Part shown: positions 1 to 59,561 of the stretch, one piece after another | How the letters are laid out: each line of letters begins with the position of its first letter | Numbering within the stretch: the stretch's first letter is position 1 | Virus record (IMG/VR): IMGVR_UViG_3300021083_000196 | Span: 3,377 to 67,376 of that record | From: a virus | Direction: 5' to 3' (one strand) | DNA: 64,000 nt | The notes under the pieces: model-generated | Databases searched by the model: none | Seen by the model: the letters and a program-made list of their open reading frames with translations, nothing else | What the model was told of the DNA's origin: nothing | Program-made: the position numbers and the translations under genes

Positions 1-384
1 ATGTCGAAATAGTGCCTTAAGGCATGTTGATTCGGCGATATATATGCGACCCTTTTCCCCTCTGAAGATTCGGCCAACGCGCGACATATTTTTCTAAACG
101 ATTCTCCGTTCCTTCTGCTCATGCTCGTAATCCCGACCATATGCAGGAGATAATCCAAAGCGATAGAACAACCGTGAGTATGGCTTCTTTTGTCATTATA
201 AAACCTTATAAAATTATAAGACTGAGGTCAACGAATTACTTGCCTGTTTTGCAAGATATTTTATAGGACTCGATGATGGCCTTTATAGCCACTTGGCAGG
301 CCTTCGGGACTCGCATGACAACGCTATCCCCATATGGCTCCTCGGGGCGGCCTGCGTGCTTGCGTTTACCGCCGTGTTTCTTCT

Positions 385-2694: not shown

Positions 2695-3044
2695 GAGCCT
2701 ACCCTTTCGTCTGTATCTGACCATATAAATTCATCAAGAGGAAAATGAGCCTTACACTTCGAACCAGTGCAGAAAGTGCCAGAATAGAACTTTGGATCAC
2801 GAGCGTAAGTTTCAGCAATAGCATGACCCATTCTTGTCTCAACCCCGCATCCGCGCCCAGTCAGTTTTGATTCTGTACCGCCGATGCCAACGTGGATATA
2901 TTTGTATCTTAACGGCCTAACATGCCCCTTCGCACGTTCCTCGGCACTTAGAACTACATAGTTTTTCTGTTGACCATCTGGGCGCAATTCTCGGTGGTCT
3001 GGCGTGACAGGACTTCCATCTTGTAGGGTGATTTTATCGGTCAT
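2691..3044 (-). CDS. hypothetical Zn-ribbon protein
   Basis: CG.ETRM...AETYARDPKFYSGTFC...C motif. Confidence 0.7.
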   Translation of the reverse strand: MTDKITLQDGSPVTPDHRELRPDGQQKNYVVLSAEERAKGHVRPLRYKYIHVGIGGTESKLTGRGCGVETRMGHAIAETYARDPKFYSGTFCTGSKCKAHFPLDEFIWSDTDERVGS

Positions 3045-3046
3045 GT

Positions 3047-3292
3047 TTATTCCTTTATATGAAAGTTTCCGTGTTTCAGTGCCATTCTCTTTGCTGCTGC
3101 ACCGTCAAGCAGGCTGATTTCAAGTCCAGAAGAACTCTCATGAGCGACAACCGCGCCGTTAATTTCTGCAATCTTCTGAATGTCATCTGCCGTGATAATA
3201 ACTTTTTCAATGCCGTGTTTTTTCATGATGATGGCAACAACCTTGTGCCATTGGTCATCCATCATTCCTACAACTTGTTTTCCTGTGATCAT
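3047..3292 (-). CDS. hypothetical phage protein
   Basis: 81-aa ORF with GGAGG SD. Confidence 0.6.
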   Translation of the reverse strand: MITGKQVVGMMDDQWHKVVAIIMKKHGIEKVIITADDIQKIAEINGAVVAHESSSGLEISLLDGAAAKRMALKHGNFHIKE

Positions 3293-3475
3293 CTCATTTT
3301 CCTCCGTGATTGGGTTGGTTTATGGTTTTTTCAAGTAAATTAACAGCCTGACAACCAAGACATGGGATATCCTCCTTGCCGCATTCGCACAATGCGCCCA
3401 TACCATGTTGGCGAATAAACTTTATTGCCCATTTTGAGTCTTTCATTTCAATACTTTCTTTTTTCTCATCGTCGG

Positions 3476-41599: not shown

Positions 41600-41676
41600 A
41601 GCAGGATAGAGGAGCGTTCGTCCTCATCGGCCTCATAAGTCGAAGATCGGTGGTTAGAATCCATCTCCTGCAACCA
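41600..41676 (+). tRNA. tRNA-Met(CAT), initiator-like
   Basis: Cloverleaf TCGGC-CT CAT AA-GTCGA; unpaired 1:72; CCA; T-loop TTAGAAT. Confidence 0.85.
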
Positions 41677-41701
41677 AATTCTAAGATGGCCAACTCAGTA
41701 T

Positions 41702-41777
41702 GAGGCTGTCGACAAGAGGTAAAGTCAGCAGATTTTCATTCTGCGATTCGTGGGTTCAAATCCCATCAGCCTCACCA
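41702..41777 (+). tRNA. tRNA-Glu(TTC)
   Basis: GAGGCTG/CAGCCTC, GCAGA-TT TTC AT-TCTGC, CCA. Confidence 0.92.
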
Positions 41778-41793
41778 CTGGAGAAAGAACGAG

Positions 41794-41847
41794 ATGTTAC
41801 GAGAGACAAACAAGATTGTGGCGAAAGCGATTAAACCCATCAAATAG
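41794..41847 (+). CDS. attenuator leader peptide 1 (MLRETNKIVAKAIKPIK)
   Basis: GGAG SD at 41780; 10 of the last 11 codons are K/I/V/A, matching the next four tRNAs. Confidence 0.75.
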   Translation: MLRETNKIVAKAIKPIK

Positions 41848-41900
41848 GGCTGGTCAAATTCGTCTTGAATTATAACCCGCCCTCAACAGGCGGGTTTTTT
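41846..41900 (+). terminator. antiterminator/intrinsic terminator 1
   Basis: AACCCGCC-ctcaaca-GGCGGGTT plus T-run; upstream AGGGCtGGT can pair with ACCcGCCCT. Confidence 0.85.
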
Positions 41901-41923
41901 ATTACGTGGAGGAAACAGATTAT

Positions 41924-41997
41924 TGACGATTGGCCGAGGGGTTAGGCATACGCTTGATAAGCGTACTACAGTGGTTCAAGTCCACTATCGTCAACCA
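41924..41997 (+). tRNA. tRNA-Ile(GAT)
   Basis: TACGC-TT GAT AA-GCGTA; CCA. Confidence 0.92.
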
Positions 41998-42003
41998 AAA
42001 TAA

Positions 42004-42076
42004 TGGTGCGGAGTCGGATGGTTAGACAGCAGATTTTTAATCTGTACCAAAGTGGGTTCAATTCCCACCGCACCAA
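42004..42076 (+). tRNA. tRNA-Lys(TTT)
   Basis: TGGTGCG/CGCACCA, GCAGA-TT TTT AA-TCTGT; no encoded CCA. Confidence 0.88.
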
Positions 42077-42077
42077 C

Positions 42078-42156
42078 GGGGAATGGGACTGCTTAGGGTG
42101 GTCGCCTCACTTGCAATGAGGATCGCAGATCGGGGCAGAACCGATATTCTCCACCA
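42078..42156 (+). tRNA. tRNA-Ala(TGC)
   Basis: G3:U70 pair; CCTCA-CT TGC AA-TGAGG; T-loop GGCAGAA; CCA. Confidence 0.9.
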
Positions 42157-42162
42157 AATTAT

Positions 42163-42237
42163 AGGGGGTTAGCTCAGAGGCAGAGCGTCCGGCTTACATC
42201 CGGAAGGACGAGATTTCGAAATTCTCACTCTCTACCA
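42163..42237 (+). tRNA. tRNA-Val(TAC)
   Basis: TCCGG-CT TAC AT-CCGGA; CCA. Confidence 0.92.
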
Positions 42238-42238
42238 T

Positions 42239-42268
42239 TTGACATCAGGACCCGAATCGTGTCATCGT
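42239..42268 (+). promoter_or_regulatory. promoter for leader 2 (predicted leaderless mRNA)
   Basis: TTGACA-18nt-(TGn)CATCGT-6nt-ATG; no SD. Confidence 0.5.
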
Positions 42269-42274
42269 TATAAG

Positions 42275-42352
42275 ATGAAAACGATATCAACATCGATGTA
42301 TTCCAGTGATCGCACCTTCAATAGAGGTTGCGGCGCGGGGCATTTGGTGTAA
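42275..42352 (+). CDS. attenuator leader peptide 2 (MKTISTSMYSSDRTFNRGCGAGHLV)
   Basis: Codons 3-20 correspond to the downstream 12-tRNA array. Confidence 0.8.
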   Translation: MKTISTSMYSSDRTFNRGCGAGHLV

Positions 42353-42414
42353 GTTTTCTTAGATTTTTATACATCAAAACCCCACCCAAAGTGATTTAGG
42401 TGGGGTTTTTGTTT
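42337..42414 (+). terminator. antiterminator/intrinsic terminator 2
   Basis: AAAACCCCACC...GGTGGGGTTTTT; leader end GGGGcaTTTGGTGTA pairs with TACATCAAAaCCCC. Confidence 0.85.
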
Positions 42415-42451
42415 ATACGGTTATTGAACATTGTTGAGATATGATGATTTT

Positions 42452-42528
42452 TTCCGAGTAGCACAGACGGTAGTTGCGCCTGACTGTTAATCAGGATGTC
42501 CGTGGTTCGATTCCACGCTCGGGAACCA
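42452..42528 (+). tRNA. tRNA-Asn(GTT)
   Basis: CCTGA-CT GTT AA-TCAGG; CCA. Confidence 0.92.
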
Positions 42529-42532
42529 ATTC

Positions 42533-42608
42533 GTCTCTCTGGCGTAGCTGGTGCGCGCGTCTGTCTGAAGAACAGAAGGATGCCGTTCGATTCGGCGGGG
42601 AGACACCA
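42533..42608 (+). tRNA. tRNA-Phe(GAA)
   Basis: TCTGT-CT GAA GA-ACAGA; CCA. Confidence 0.9.
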
Positions 42609-42613
42609 AATAC

Positions 42614-42688
42614 GCGCTGGAGATGTTGGCGGGTGCATGCGAGTCTTCCAAACTTGATGATGGGGTTCGACTCCCCACCGGCGCACCA
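42614..42688 (+). tRNA. tRNA-Gly(TCC)
   Basis: CGAGT-CT TCC AA-ACTTG; CCA. Confidence 0.9.
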
Positions 42689-42694
42689 AATTGA

Positions 42695-42770
42695 CGCAGC
42701 ATAGCTTAGTGGCTAAAGCTCGTTCCTCATAAGAACGCTATCATGGGTTCGAGTCCCATTGCTGCTACCA
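42695..42770 (+). tRNA. tRNA(CAT): Ile2 or Met
   Basis: CGTTC-CT CAT AA-GAACG; C1/U72 mismatch; identity not resolvable by eye. Confidence 0.85.
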
Positions 42771-42774
42771 CTTC

Positions 42775-42849
42775 GCCTCTAAAGCATTGTTAGTGATGCA
42801 GTTGCCTTGTAAGCATCAGAAGTCGGCGCAACTCCGGCATGAGGCACCA
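42775..42849 (+). tRNA. tRNA-Thr(TGT)
   Basis: CT TGT AA loop; T-loop CGCAACT; CCA. Confidence 0.85.
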
Positions 42850-42855
42850 ATTCAT

Positions 42856-42930
42856 GGACACATAGCTCAACGGTAGAGCACCGCACTGTCACTGCGGAGG
42901 TCGTGGGGTCAGCACCCATTGTGTTCGCCA
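42856..42930 (+). tRNA. tRNA-Asp(GTC)
   Basis: CCGCA-CT GTC AC-TGCGG; G73; CCA. Confidence 0.9.
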
Positions 42931-42994
42931 ATTATGTGTGGATATGAACATTTTTTATTAGGTTCATATCCACATTTGTGTTACTTTCTTTTCT

Positions 42995-43429
42995 ATGAAA
43001 AAATGCATTAAATGTGAAAAAATAAAACAGTTAGATTCCTTTTATAAAAGAAATGACAGAAAAGATCGTTATTCTTCGTCATGTATTGAGTGCCAAAGAA
43101 AATATCTAAAAGAGCACTATCACAAAAATATCAAATATTATAAGGCGAAAGCCAGAAAAAATGATATTAACGCAATAGAACAAAGATTCCATTTTTTAGT
43201 GGATTATTTAAAAAATAACCCATGTGTTGACTGTGGAGAAGGCGACATTGTAGTCCTTCAGTTTGATCACGTTCGAGGAAAGAAATTTCGCAACATTTCT
43301 ATGATGCTACACAGAAAAATGTCATGGGAAAAAATACTTTTAGAAATAAAAAAGTGTGAGGTTAGGTGTTCAAATTGCCATGTTAGAAAAACGGCAAGGC
43401 AATTTAATTGGAAAAAATTGCATGTATAG
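42995..43429 (+). CDS. HNH endonuclease inserted in tRNA array 2
   Basis: CIKC...PCVDCGE.D...LQFDHVRG...KCEVRCSNCH. Confidence 0.88.
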   Translation: MKKCIKCEKIKQLDSFYKRNDRKDRYSSSCIECQRKYLKEHYHKNIKYYKAKARKNDINAIEQRFHFLVDYLKNNPCVDCGEGDIVVLQFDHVRGKKFRNISMMLHRKMSWEKILLEIKKCEVRCSNCHVRKTARQFNWKKLHV

Positions 43430-43496
43430 CTCAATGGAGTAGAGCACCAAGCTACGAACTTGGGGGTTAAGGGTTCGAGTCCTTTTACATGCGCCA
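43420..43496 (+). tRNA. tRNA-Arg(ACG)
   Basis: CCAAG-CT ACG AA-CTTGG; CCA. Confidence 0.92.
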
Positions 43497-43501
43497 ATTT
43501 T

Positions 43502-43575
43502 CTCGTAGTGACGGAATGGTTACGTGACGGTCTGCAAAACCGTTTATGGCAGTTCGATTCTGCCCTATGAGTCCA
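43502..43575 (+). tRNA. tRNA-Cys(GCA)
   Basis: ACGGT-CT GCA AA-ACCGT; U73; CCA. Confidence 0.92.
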
Positions 43576-43576
43576 C

Positions 43577-43668
43577 GGAAAGTTTAGTGCAGCGGCCTGC
43601 ACCCCGATCTTGAAAATCGGTGATAGTCAGCGATGGCTATGGGGATCGACACCACCAGCTTTCCTCCA
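43577..43668 (+). tRNA. tRNA-Ser(TGA)
   Basis: CCGAT-CT TGA AA-ATCGG; long variable arm; CCA. Confidence 0.85.
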
Positions 43669-43675
43669 ATTCTTC

Positions 43676-43764
43676 GGTGAGTTAACTTGGCAAGTGCCAA
43701 GCACGGTTTGCTAAACCGTTGGTGCCTTTACCGGCATGTGGATCAGGACCACATCTCTCCGCCA
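43676..43764 (+). tRNA. tRNA-Ser(GCT)
   Basis: ACGGT-TT GCT AA-ACCGT; long variable arm; G73; CCA. Confidence 0.85.
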
Positions 43765-43765
43765 T

Positions 43766-43842
43766 CGGTGTCGGCACAGGTTGGATTCTGGTCTCGACTG
43801 TAAATCGACGTAAATGTGGTTCGACTCCACAGGCACCGACCA
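43766..43842 (+). tRNA. tRNA-Tyr(GTA)
   Basis: TCGA-CT GTA AA-TCGA; C1:G72; short variable loop; CCA. Confidence 0.85.
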
Positions 43843-43849
43843 ATTTTAT

Positions 43850-43929
43850 AGGCATGTATCTCCTTTGTCTTCTAAACAAGTGAAAGAGTAATTGGACTCA
43901 TGTAGGTTCGAATCCTATCATGCCTGCCA
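43850..43929 (+). tRNA. atypical tRNA-Arg(TCT) lacking a canonical D-arm
   Basis: AGGCATG/CATGCCT-G-CCA, TTTGT-CT TCT AA-ACAAG, GTAGG-TTCGAAT-CCTAT; only 7 nt between acceptor and anticodon stems. Confidence 0.75.
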
Positions 43930-44037
43930 AAATATCCATTGCATTCTCTGGAGAACATCCGTTAGAGTCTTTTCTTGGGCATGTGCTCATGAGGAAACAA
44001 AATGTCAATCAGAAAAATCATAAGAGGAATCATCATA

Positions 44038-44253
44038 ATGTCAGATATCGCAGACAATGTTATCGCACTCCAAGGCGCAGTAAACTCGCTTACAACAGAA
44101 ATCGCTTCACTCACGGCAGCCGTTGGTGCTCTCCAAGCTCCTGCAGCTCCTACCGTAGACCTTTCTCCCGTGCTTGCGGCTATTGCTGACATCAAGGCTC
44201 AACTCGTTCCGACACCTGCTCCGGCAGCACCGGCGACGACTACAGGCTCATAA
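44038..44253 (+). CDS. small Ala-rich coiled-coil protein
   Basis: MSDIADNV after GAGGA; followed by a terminator. Confidence 0.7.
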   Translation: MSDIADNVIALQGAVNSLTTEIASLTAAVGALQAPAAPTVDLSPVLAAIADIKAQLVPTPAPAAPATTTGS

Positions 44254-44280
44254 CTTTATAAAAGCTATGATATATTAAAA

Positions 44281-44312
44281 AAAGCTGGGGGATAACACCC
44301 TCAGCTTTTTTT
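44281..44312 (+). terminator. intrinsic terminator
   Basis: AAAGCTGGGGG-ataacac-CCTCAGCTTT plus T-run. Confidence 0.8.
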
Positions 44313-44313
44313 G

Positions 44314-44342
44314 TTGCTTTAAAAACAGAATCATCATATCGT
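44314..44342 (+). promoter_or_regulatory. promoter for leader 3 (predicted leaderless mRNA)
   Basis: TTGCTT-17nt-TATCGT-6nt-ATG; no SD. Confidence 0.55.
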
Positions 44343-44348
44343 AGAACA

Positions 44349-44423
44349 ATGAAAACGAATTTGTTACAGCTCTGGCATCAACCGCTCCCACAACTGGGAG
44401 TTTTTGTGCTTGGGCGAATGTAG
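44349..44423 (+). CDS. attenuator leader peptide 3 (MKTNLLQLWHQPLPQLGVFVLGRM)
   Basis: Codons 5-16 are exclusively L/Q/W/H/P, matching the next six tRNAs. Confidence 0.8.
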   Translation: MKTNLLQLWHQPLPQLGVFVLGRM

Positions 44424-44475
44424 GCAATAACTCATAAAGTTATTAACCAACCCGCCCTAACAAGGCGGGTTTTTT
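44412..44475 (+). terminator. antiterminator/intrinsic terminator 3
   Basis: AACCCGCC-ctaacaa-GGCGGGTT plus T-run; GGGCG in the leader pairs with CGCCC around the AATAACT/AGTTATT stem. Confidence 0.85.
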
Positions 44476-44496
44476 GTTATTGAAGGAGAAATTAAA

Positions 44497-44579
44497 GGGG
44501 ATGTGATGAAATTGGTAGACTTCCCTGACTTAAAATCAGGGGCTTCGGCGTGTGAGTTCAAGTCTCACCATCCCCACCA
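44497..44579 (+). tRNA. tRNA-Leu(TAA)
   Basis: CCTGA-CT TAA AA-TCAGG; CCA. Confidence 0.92.
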
Positions 44580-44581
44580 AT

Positions 44582-44659
44582 GCCGGTGTAGCAGAATGGC
44601 AAATGCGGCGGTCTTAGGAACCGCGTCATCTGGAGGTTCGAGTCCTCTCACCGGCACCA
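44582..44659 (+). tRNA. tRNA-Leu(TAG)
   Basis: GCGGT-CT TAG GA-ACCGC; short variable region; CCA. Confidence 0.9.
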
Positions 44660-44665
44660 AATTAA

Positions 44666-44742
44666 CGGCATGTAGCGAAGTCTGGTATCGCGCTCCCCTT
44701 GGGAGGGAGAGATCGAAGGTTCAAATCCTTCTATGCCGACCA
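44666..44742 (+). tRNA. tRNA-Pro(TGG)
   Basis: CTCCC-CT TGG GA-GGGAG; C1:G72; CCA. Confidence 0.92.
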
Positions 44743-44746
44743 TTTT

Positions 44747-44820
44747 ACAGGGATCGTCTAGTGGCAAGACAAGGGCCTCCAAAACCTTTGACCGGTGTTC
44801 GATTCATCGTCCCTGTGCCA
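44747..44820 (+). tRNA. tRNA-Trp(CCA)
   Basis: CT CCA AA loop; G73; CCA. Confidence 0.88.
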
Positions 44821-44826
44821 GTCTGT

Positions 44827-44901
44827 GGTGTGTATAGCTCAAGGGTCGAGCGCGGGATTGTGGCTCCTGATATACGGGTTCGAGTCCCGTTACGCACCCC
44901 A
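44827..44901 (+). tRNA. tRNA-His(GTG)
   Basis: CGGGA-TT GTG GC-TCCTG; encoded G-1 and C73. Confidence 0.92.
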
Positions 44902-44904
44902 TAT

Positions 44905-44980
44905 TCCGAGGTCGTCTAAATGGCAAGGACATGTGATTTTGGCTCATATAATGTTGGTTCGAACCCAGCCCTCGGAACCA
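44905..44980 (+). tRNA. tRNA-Gln(TTG)
   Basis: TGTGA-TT TTG GC-TCATA; U1:A72; CCA. Confidence 0.9.
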
Positions 44981-59164: not shown

Positions 59165-59264
59165 TAGAGGAACATGCGATAAAAGAAATGCCGATTTGAA
59201 CGGCTATGCAGCTTTTTTAAAGCTGTGTTCAACCAATGAAGTATCTCTTATCTATCGCCATCTA
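59165..59264 (-). ncRNA. Y RNA-like 4 (Ro-binding stem plus T-arm hairpin)
   Basis: TAGA-TGGCG...TACTTCA...GCATGTTCC-TCTA; internal GCCG-TTCAAAT-CGGC. Confidence 0.75.
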
Positions 59265-59274
59265 CAAAAGTACA

Positions 59275-59407
59275 GTGAGGGAACAAGCACCGAAAGTAAC
59301 GTATGCGCTCTACCACTAAGCTACAACAACCATAAATGGGTTGCTGACCGGATTCGAACCGATGCCTCATCCTCCAAATGGAAGTAACTCTCGATTACAC
59401 CACTCAC
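59275..59407 (-). ncRNA. yrlA: YrlA-type Y RNA 3
   Basis: GTGAG-TGGTG...TACTTC...GCTTGTTCC-CTCAC enclosing a permuted tRNA (T-arm, closed acceptor stem, D-arm). Confidence 0.85.
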
Positions 59408-59417
59408 CTTATCAAGC

Positions 59418-59550
59418 AACAGGGGAATAAGCGGAAAGACGTTTTTTACGTGCTCTACCAATTGAGCTACCCACCCCGAAGGGCAGGGATGGACTCGAAC
59501 CACCAACCCCGTCATTACAAATGAAGAACTTCTTTCCTACGCCACCTGTT
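59418..59550 (-). ncRNA. yrlA: YrlA-type Y RNA 2
   Basis: AACAGG-TGGCG...TTCTTCA...GCTTATTCC-CCTGTT; GGTTCGAGTCC then TAGCTCAATTGGTAGAGC. Confidence 0.85.
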
Positions 59551-59561
59551 TTATCTATACA

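Follow-up and report, generated by a model that had tools for sequence, protein, structure and literature searches.

The window analysed here is a stretch of 64,000 nucleotides (nt) of viral DNA, positions 3,377 to 67,376 of the IMG/VR record IMGVR_UViG_3300021083_000196, which covers most of a genome of 67,376 bp recovered as a single contig. Judging from the terminase, portal, capsid, sheath and tape-measure genes found in the window, it belongs to a myovirus-type phage, and a search of sequencing runs detected the sequence solely in two DNA runs, both from one peat-metagenome study and possibly the origin of this DNA. All its credible tRNA genes (ARAGORN, Rfam) are confined to 41600-44980 on the plus strand, where they form blocks that jointly serve all 20 amino acids. 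In order, this region contains Met (CAT) and Glu tRNA genes; a short open reading frame (ORF), L1, with a terminator; Ile, Lys, Ala-like and Val tRNA genes (array 1); the ORF L2 with a terminator; 12 tRNA genes split by an HNH endonuclease ORF (array 2); an 83-aa ORF with a terminator; the ORF L3 with a terminator; and Leu, Leu, Pro, Trp, His and Gln tRNA genes (array 3). L1, L2 and L3 are referred to as the leader ORFs of arrays 1, 2 and 3, and L081 and L085 denote contigs of two relatives. The main subject of this work is L2, located upstream of the tRNA genes of array 2 and in the same orientation, around which the following features are found.

42239-42268, plus strand: promoter-like element, TTGACA at 42239-42244, an 18-nt spacer and TG-n-CATCGT at 42260-42268
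42275-42352, plus strand: leader ORF L2, MKTISTSMYSSDRTFNRGCGAGHLV, 25 codons, ATG at 42275 and TAA at 42350-42352
42281-42334, plus strand: codons 3-20 of L2, the matching ('sensing') codons
42306-42336, plus strand: in-ORF hairpin, codons 11-21, from minimum free energy (MFE) folds
42337-42383, plus strand: predicted antiterminator helix, 5' strand GGGGCAUUUGGUGUA pairing with UACAUCAAAACCCC
42378-42414, plus strand: intrinsic terminator, stem-loop AACCCCACC..GGUGGGGUU at 42378-42407 (-16.3 kcal/mol), then TTTTTGTTT
42419-42451, plus strand: conserved block adjoining the first tRNA gene of array 2, with 19 + 15 nt identical to L081
42452-43929, plus strand: array 2, Asn, Phe, Gly-TCC, CAT, Thr-TGT, Asp, HNH ORF, Arg-ACG, Cys, Ser-TGA, Ser-GCT-like, Tyr-GTA-like and Arg-TCT

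The sequence-only reading had proposed L2 as a codon checklist for array 2 and had quoted the ORF, a terminator behind it, an antiterminator and an internal hairpin. The interval it gave, 42239-42414, also includes the TTGACA at 42239-42244. It further suggested that single codons in place of tandem runs might be suited to detecting a near-total loss of tRNAs. The coordinates and the 25 codons of the ORF were verified on the sequence, and the terminator is present, with a T run after the stem that reaches 42414. The quoted antiterminator is the MFE fold of a transcript cut before the terminator 3' arm, in which GGGG..UUUGGUGUA (42337-42351) pairs with UACAUCAAA.CCCC (42370-42383); its 5' strand consists of the last codons and the stop codon, and its 3' strand includes the first bases of the terminator 5' arm. 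The hairpin within the ORF also appears in MFE folds and is a possible pause hairpin for RNA polymerase, and in L081 a hairpin and a terminator of different sequence occupy the same places. That the last codons of L2 (A, G, H, L, V) would serve as antiterminator RNA and not as sensors fits the comparison with L081, in which they have become E, G, L, F, V while the helix is retained with other bases.

Ten of the 12 tRNA genes of array 2 pass the threshold of ARAGORN or of Rfam. Eight are default ARAGORN calls (Asn, Phe, Gly-TCC, CAT, Asp, Arg-ACG, Cys and Ser-TGA), Thr-TGT is called by ARAGORN at a lowered threshold and by Rfam (31.5 bits), and Arg-TCT by Rfam (33.6 bits). The Tyr-GTA-like gene (43765-43839) gives a sub-threshold match of 23.7 bits to the tRNA-Sec model, and the Ser-GCT-like gene (ca. 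43671-43760), for which neither ARAGORN nor Rfam gave a match, was recognised by a cloverleaf-like fold, an anticodon loop read by eye and synteny with L081, in which ARAGORN calls Ser-GCT, Tyr-GTA and Arg-TCT in identical order. In the MFE fold of the Arg-TCT-like gene (43850-43926), an arm with a CUUCUAA loop precedes a D-loop-like AAUUGG arm, so that the arms look swapped. HNH endonuclease ORFs are found within arrays both in the window (42995-43429) and in L081 (3671-4045 and 5269-5676), at different array sites, as expected for mobile insertions.

Codons 3-20 of L2 all encode amino acids served by array 2, counting ATA with the CAT tRNA. At the level of isoacceptors, reading by eye, 14 of these 18 codons are cognate to array-2 anticodons by standard wobble, and TCC, ACC, GGT and GGC are reached only by extended wobble. 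In a null set of 869 ORFs of 15-40 codons, taken from all six frames of the 67-kb genome, L2 ranks first, with 18 consecutive residues belonging to the 11-amino-acid set of array 2 against 16 in the next ORF. It includes all 11 amino-acid types, for which P=0.0038 in 24 random residues.

The two sister leaders show the same correspondence with their own arrays. Their features are:

41794-41903, plus strand: whole L1 element, with the ORF MLRETNKIVAKAIKPIK at 41794-41847, a Shine-Dalgarno sequence GGAG at 41780 and a terminator at 41874-41903
41924-42237, plus strand: array 1
44349-44477, plus strand: whole L3 element, with the ORF MKTNLLQLWHQPLPQLGVFVLGRM at 44349-44423, an in-ORF hairpin at 44384-44401 and a terminator at 44449-44477
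44497-44980, plus strand: array 3

L1 contains KIVAKAIK, a run of eight residues from I/K/A/V that is the longest among the 869 ORFs (next 6); 10 of its 16 residues after the start are from this set, and all 10 codons are, by eye, cognate to the four downstream anticodons with standard wobble. The run of 12 from L/P/W/H/Q in L3, LLQLWHQPLPQL, is likewise the longest (next 7), and L3 carries both TTR and CTN leucine codons, matching the two Leu tRNAs. In chi-square tests, the leader-by-array tables of the window and of L081 gave p=3.9e-6 and p=2.9e-7, respectively.

L081 is an IMG/VR contig of 70,425 bp with the same array layout, whose proteins are 59% and 55% identical to those of the window in two neighbouring genes. 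Its leaders are MRRETVKIVAKAIKPDK (L1), MKTICTSNMSYDRGFGRSGEGLFV (L2, at 3010-3084) and MKKNLLQPWHLQQLPLGAFMLGR (L3). The two L2 ORFs differ at nine of the first 20 codons, and the positions of the single codons for Cys, Asn, Tyr and internal Met have all shifted, yet all 11 amino-acid types are retained (P=3.8e-4 under random replacement at the nine differing positions). In L3, six of the 12 core codons differ, and all the substitutions remain inside L/P/W/H/Q (P=4.9e-5). The longest stretches of DNA identical between both phages in the tRNA region are located in L1 (27 and 31 nt) and in the block after the L2 terminator, and none in the tRNA genes. This block, which occurs once in the window, is a possible processing site or promoter; a sigma-70 scan listed no site in 42415-42451. 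In L081, the first gene past the L2 terminator is a tRNA without counterpart in the window (3179-3264, Rfam 58 bits), with an anticodon loop of ca. 14 nt that ARAGORN describes as a 9-nt insertion.

The effect of a translating ribosome on the folding of the leaders was modelled by masking a 29-nt footprint at each codon and folding the remaining RNA. As a kinetic proxy, the fraction of the terminator 5' arm paired upstream before the 3' arm exists (sequestration) was computed. The attenuators of E. coli thrL, hisL, trpL and leuL (from NC_000913.3) were used as controls, and 100 dinucleotide shuffles were run for each leader. The values for a stalled ribosome, for a ribosome at the stop codon and the shuffles that reached the observed contrast were:

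Window L1: stalled 0.74, at stop 0.23, shuffles 1/100
Window L2: stalled 0.43, at stop 0.00, shuffles 0/100
Window L3: stalled 0.73, at stop 0.34, shuffles 7/100
L081 L1: stalled 0.80, at stop 0.30, shuffles 1/100
L081 L2: stalled 0.46, at stop 0.22, shuffles 9/100
L081 L3: stalled 0.63, at stop 0.21, shuffles 6/100
E. coli thrL: stalled 0.48, at stop 0.03, shuffles 1/100
E. coli trpL: stalled 0.69, at stop 0.06, shuffles 0/100
E. coli hisL: stalled 0.67, at stop 0.50, shuffles 6/100
E. coli leuL: stalled 0.41, at stop 0.25, shuffles 20/100

In this model the phage leaders behave like the four E. coli attenuators, with contrasts of 0.24-0.51 in the six phage leaders against 0.15-0.64 in the controls, reached by 0-9 and 0-20 of 100 shuffles, respectively. 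The contrast of L2 of the window is comparable with those of thrL and trpL; its proxy ranges over 0.35-0.59 while the ribosome occupies codons 2-17, falls to 0.09 at codon 18 and does not exceed 0.01 from codon 19 to the stop. The distance between the stop codon and the terminator arm is 25-28 nt in all six leaders of the window and L081, from which we estimate that a terminating ribosome would be too far away to melt the terminator and would be well placed to mask the antiterminator strand. As a measure, the equilibrium probability of the terminator was dropped, because it is at least 0.95 in the four real E. coli attenuators too.

A scanner for further leaders was applied to eight unrelated tRNA-bearing phage loci; it looks in the gaps upstream of tRNA genes for short ORFs with a run of residues from the set of the next 2-15 tRNAs, with a cut-off of p<0.01 after Bonferroni correction. 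Nothing was found in seven of the eight lineages (L087, Pectobacterium DU_PP_V, Ralstonia RSP15, Vibrio D482, Pseudomonas Astolliot, DSS3_MAL1 and Flyfo Tbat2_3), negatives that are weak for large arrays, since the scanner misses L2 itself because default ARAGORN misses several tRNAs of its array. In the eighth, Caulobacter phage RB23, the ORF MSKSYRQFVRQIQFVRVNRAGRSRMDDGGTRV (MSKSYRQFVRQIQFVRVNR..) precedes an array of Val, Ile, Val, Gln, Asn, Arg and Phe tRNA genes (corrected p=9e-6), and an unannotated Tyr-like tRNA gene seen by eye before Val would lengthen its run to 15. The ORF is preceded by TTGACA, a 17-nt spacer, TATAAG and 7 nt to the ATG, it is followed by a GC-rich terminator, and part of it repeats the terminator 3' arm. 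Forty-five phage records match this leader region, in 11 cases with at least 80% of its length aligned, and homologous leaders with strong terminators are present in phiCbK, Rogue, Colossus and Brevundimonas phage Papperlapapp; the record of Colossus annotates a terminator directly after the leader ORF. By sequence, then, the phiCbK-like phages of Caulobacter and Brevundimonas, an unrelated group, appear to share the same leader design. Their ORFs extend ca. 9 codons beyond the antiterminator strand and, in the masked folds, sequestration drops with the ribosome at codons ca. 15-24 and climbs again at the stop codon, so the detailed mechanism may differ there.

A second type of ORF in these phages, phiCbK_235 (CcrRogue_gp083 in Rogue), is rich in L, S, T, K, A, P and H and precedes an array of Pro, Pro, Lys, Lys, Leu, Leu, Leu, Ala, Ser and Ser tRNA genes, with a corrected p of 1e-4 in phiCbK and 0.012 in Rogue. 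The hypothetical proteins phiCbK_235, CcrRogue_gp083 and PAPPERLAPAPP_05820 (L151 704-841; L153 636-773; L154 441-575) look like leader peptides of tRNA arrays.

A promoter-like spacing that bears on the start of translation was seen in both lineages. In the window, L081 and L085 alike, L1 has a Shine-Dalgarno sequence (GGAG or GAGG) at a distance of 9-11 nt from its ATG, and none is found upstream of L2 or L3. All 10 ORFs that lack a Shine-Dalgarno sequence (L2 and L3 of the window and of L081, the ORF of L085, and those of RB23, phiCbK, Rogue, Colossus, taken from its first ATG, and Papperlapapp) have a -35-like hexamer, TTGAC[A/T/C] or TTGC[TT/AA], 29-30 nt upstream of the ATG. In L2 the A of the ATG stands 7 nt after the -10-like hexamer, and the pattern TTGACW..ATGAAA has a single occurrence in the window. 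A -35-like hexamer, a spacer of 17-18 nt, a -10 hexamer and six further bases would place the start of transcription at the A of the ATG, and this spacing suggests that leaders of the L2/L3 type are leaderless mRNAs. Leaderless mRNAs are common in Caulobacter.

Taken with the sister leaders, L081, the masked folding and the phiCbK-like phages, which all support the idea that leader codons match the downstream tRNAs and that an antiterminator at the end of the ORF controls the terminator, L2 is probably a ribosome-mediated transcription attenuator that senses tRNA supply and whose regulated genes are themselves tRNAs. Transcription would begin at or beside the L2 ATG, or arrive from the upstream array, and a ribosome would translate the 25 codons while RNA polymerase advances, possibly paused by the in-ORF hairpin. 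With a sufficient supply of all the charged tRNAs for codons 3 to ca. 17, the ribosome would get as far as the stop codon and cover the G-rich strand at 42337-42351, the terminator at 42378-42407 would fold and transcription would stop before array 2. If any of them were scarce, the ribosome would stall upstream and leave the G-rich strand free to pair with 42370-42383, which would remove the start of the terminator 5' arm and let the polymerase enter the 12 tRNA genes. The outcome would be a demand-driven negative feedback on the phage tRNA supply, with L1 and L3 acting likewise on the other two arrays.

Alternatively, the tRNA units could each have their own promoter and be insulated from one another by constitutive terminators, the ORFs being non-regulatory and either untranslated or translated without consequence. 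The terminator is thermodynamically dominant at every ribosome position (equilibrium probability of at least 0.9 in the phage leaders), L2 and L3 lack a Shine-Dalgarno sequence, and the conserved block at 42419-42451 could be a promoter that bypasses the L2 terminator. However, no sigma-70-like site was listed there, and insulation would leave unexplained the match of each ORF to its own array, the set kept with a permuted order in L081, the position of the stop codon, always in the strand complementary to the terminator arm, and the recurrence in phiCbK-like phages, so that we regard it as unlikely. The leaders might instead act after transcription, stalled or passing ribosomes altering the processing, decay or Rho access of the precursor and not intrinsic termination. 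This would suit the need of tRNA precursors for processing and the conserved A/U-rich and purine-rich blocks between terminators and first tRNA genes, but strong canonical intrinsic terminators with matching antiterminator strands are conserved in every case and nothing points specifically to Rho or to a nuclease, which makes it rather improbable.

A positive feed-forward is also conceivable, in which smooth translation of the leader keeps the ribosome near the polymerase and blocks termination, so that more tRNA leads to more tRNA. One report describes terminators placed shortly after a gene as open to suppression by ribosome-polymerase coupling (PMC4824070), and L3 of the window has a hairpin and a T run within the ORF. 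Nevertheless, the in-ORF hairpin of L081 L3 has no T run, the 25-28 nt before the terminator 5' arm put it out of reach by the estimated footprint in six of six leaders, and a ribosome that has reached the stop codon covers the antiterminator, which tips the balance towards termination; we find this reading quite improbable. L2 might, lastly, be a chance ORF or encode a functional micropeptide with a coincidental composition: short ORFs are common, and three of the 869 null ORFs hold all 11 amino-acid types of array 2. But rank 1 of 869 was obtained in three separate cases, each beside the right array, a conserved set in permuted order argues against a peptide with a sequence-dependent function, and the design recurs independently in a second lineage, so that this reading seems to us highly improbable.

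Besides the dominance of the terminator and the possible promoter in the conserved block, a number of observations weigh against attenuation by L2. Two of the 12 tRNA genes (Ser-GCT-like and Tyr-GTA-like) are aberrant or weakly supported, and the four codons of 18 outside standard wobble require four-way U34 reading. The lack of a Shine-Dalgarno sequence is accompanied by a weak -10-like hexamer, CATCGT; a sigma-70 promoter scan listed neither the L2 site nor the corresponding sites of the other leaders without Shine-Dalgarno sequences, whose -10-like hexamers are weak in general. In the model, a ribosome at codons 18-20 (Gly, Cys, Gly) masks the antiterminator (sequestration of 0.09 or less), so these codons are predicted to come too late to signal and Cys may not be sensed in this phage. 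The antiterminator overlaps the terminator arm by only 4-6 nt. No anti-antiterminator (1:2) pairing was found, since the in-ORF hairpin at 42306-42336 does not overlap the antiterminator strand; sequestration without a ribosome is 0.35, near the stalled-state value, and absence of translation should therefore also give read-through. The L1 of the partial contig L085 retains Val and Ala codons with only Ile-like and Lys tRNA genes before the next promoter-like site. Sampling is thin, with two relatives of the clade found, one of them partial, and the search of sequencing runs with the window sequence gave no RNA run.

L085 contains Met and Glu tRNA genes, L1, a terminator and Ile-like and Lys tRNA genes, after which a promoter-like site is followed by a long ORF that runs off the end of the contig. 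This ORF (ca. 1-136, minus strand), with TTGACT 30 nt before the ATG, has at least 45 codons, which cover most amino-acid types, and may represent an extended leader serving a single large array.

We entertain more tentatively the wider proposition, which is possible rather than probable, that codon-checklist leaders are general, undescribed phage regulators that arose independently in at least two lineages, detect the loss of host tRNAs and switch on the matching block. If that were true, the loss sensed would stem from host shut-off or from tRNA-cleaving defence nucleases, and the partition of the amino acids into blocks, each with its own sensor, would be the unit of regulation.

The phage leaders resemble E. 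coli trpL, thrL, hisL and leuL in having a short ORF with diagnostic codons, an intrinsic terminator and an antiterminator strand that is covered at the stop codon, and the logic would be the same, smooth translation leading to termination and stalling to read-through. They differ from these classical attenuators in that the regulated genes are tRNAs instead of enzymes, so that the loop would sense and correct the tRNA supply itself, and in devoting one or a few codons to each of as many as 11 amino-acid types, whereas the classical leaders carry tandem runs of one or two, thrL being their multi-amino-acid type. They also lack a clear 1:2 pairing and, in L2 and L3, a Shine-Dalgarno sequence, they are phage-borne, and no Rfam leader family reached the gathering score anywhere in the window. 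The L3 region (44367-44478) gave a sub-threshold match to the Rfam Trp_leader model (22.4 bits against a threshold of 41, E=0.38), to be taken only as a hint. T-boxes act by direct binding of uncharged tRNA, with no translation involved, and their targets are synthetase and biosynthesis genes; they and L2 would both link tRNA status to terminator read-through, but L2 has an ORF, and no Rfam T-box model matched in the region.

Closer in their start are the mycobacterial polycysteine ORFs, described as leaderless short-ORF attenuators that begin at the transcript 5' end and respond to one amino acid (10.1101/834739). They control cysteine-related operons through runs of a single codon type, whereas the output of L2 would be a tRNA array and its leaderless start is suggested by promoter spacing. 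Phage tRNA arrays have been described to counter host tRNA loss or tRNA-cleaving defences (PMC12409363); that work concerns what phage tRNAs do and gives a reason for a need timed to a particular moment, and a codon-matched sensor of their transcription was not encountered in the literature searches. A full-text literature search, whose coverage leaves out ca. 1.7 million PubMed Central articles and most subscription papers, found no leader peptide or attenuation before tRNA genes or phage tRNA arrays. As far as these searches reach, attenuation by leader peptides is on record for amino-acid metabolism and resistance genes, and not for tRNA genes.

In the proposed circuit the sensor, a ribosome awaiting a tRNA, and the product, that tRNA, would close a direct feedback loop, which, if true, would explain how phages time and dose their tRNA arrays. 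For annotation, a short ORF whose amino-acid set equals the downstream tRNA set can be read as a leader. Moreover, the phiCbK-like phages of Caulobacter crescentus provide a cultured phage-host system with what appears to be the same design, in which direct testing is possible.

Searches for further relatives covered several collections. When the tRNA region was compared with 50,697 phage records by megablast and blastn, only single tRNAs matched. With the tail-fibre protein, tblastn gave no match and an IMG/VR scan no relative, and the portal protein detected only relatives of less than 60% identity, of the Pbunavirus type. In IMG/VR, the endolysin-like protein returned 80 loci, of which 30 were scanned for tRNA genes and none had an array, while a 137-aa protein, its alignment and the alignment of a 56-aa protein each returned only the L081 contig. 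In metagenomes, a protein alignment found none and a 20-nt pattern of L1 had two matches, in bacterial genes without tRNAs. An 18-nt pattern of L1 had 34 matches in genome contigs, none near a tRNA. A 17-nt pattern of the conserved block had 23 matches in IMG/VR, one of them the contig of L081 (as L086), and the other 22 were scanned for tRNA genes; among the matches, the unrelated contig L087, with 27 tRNAs, served as the negative control mentioned above.

Some observations concern the tRNA genes themselves and their surroundings. Minus-strand ARAGORN calls at 59182-59552, Phe(AAA) and Thr(TGT), had no Rfam match at threshold and are probably false, and a permissive ARAGORN run with introns gave 145 calls, mostly spurious, that were disregarded. 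In the stretches that separate the L1 and L3 terminators from the first tRNA gene of the array, both phages keep purine blocks resembling Shine-Dalgarno sequences, GGAGGAAACAGATT and AAGGAGAA (41908-41921 and 44482-44490 in the window, 2596-2609 and ca. 4975-4983 in L081), with no conserved ORF after them. Several tRNAs or tRNA-like genes of the clade have non-standard T loops (GGCAGAA, GUCAGCA, AUCAGGA) in place of the TTCGAAT-type loop (42082-42157, 42856-42930 and 43671-43760 in the window, 4117-4188 in L081, and ca. 300-640 on the minus strand of L085); two were missed by both ARAGORN and Rfam, and they may be pseudogenes or a deliberate variant. Finally, the first Met tRNA gene (41600-41676 in the window, 2216-2290 in L081) lies ahead of every leader and lacks one itself. 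The top of its acceptor stem is mismatched (by eye, A/A in the window and C/A in L081), an initiator-like trait, and a constitutive initiator tRNA would suit leaderless leaders.

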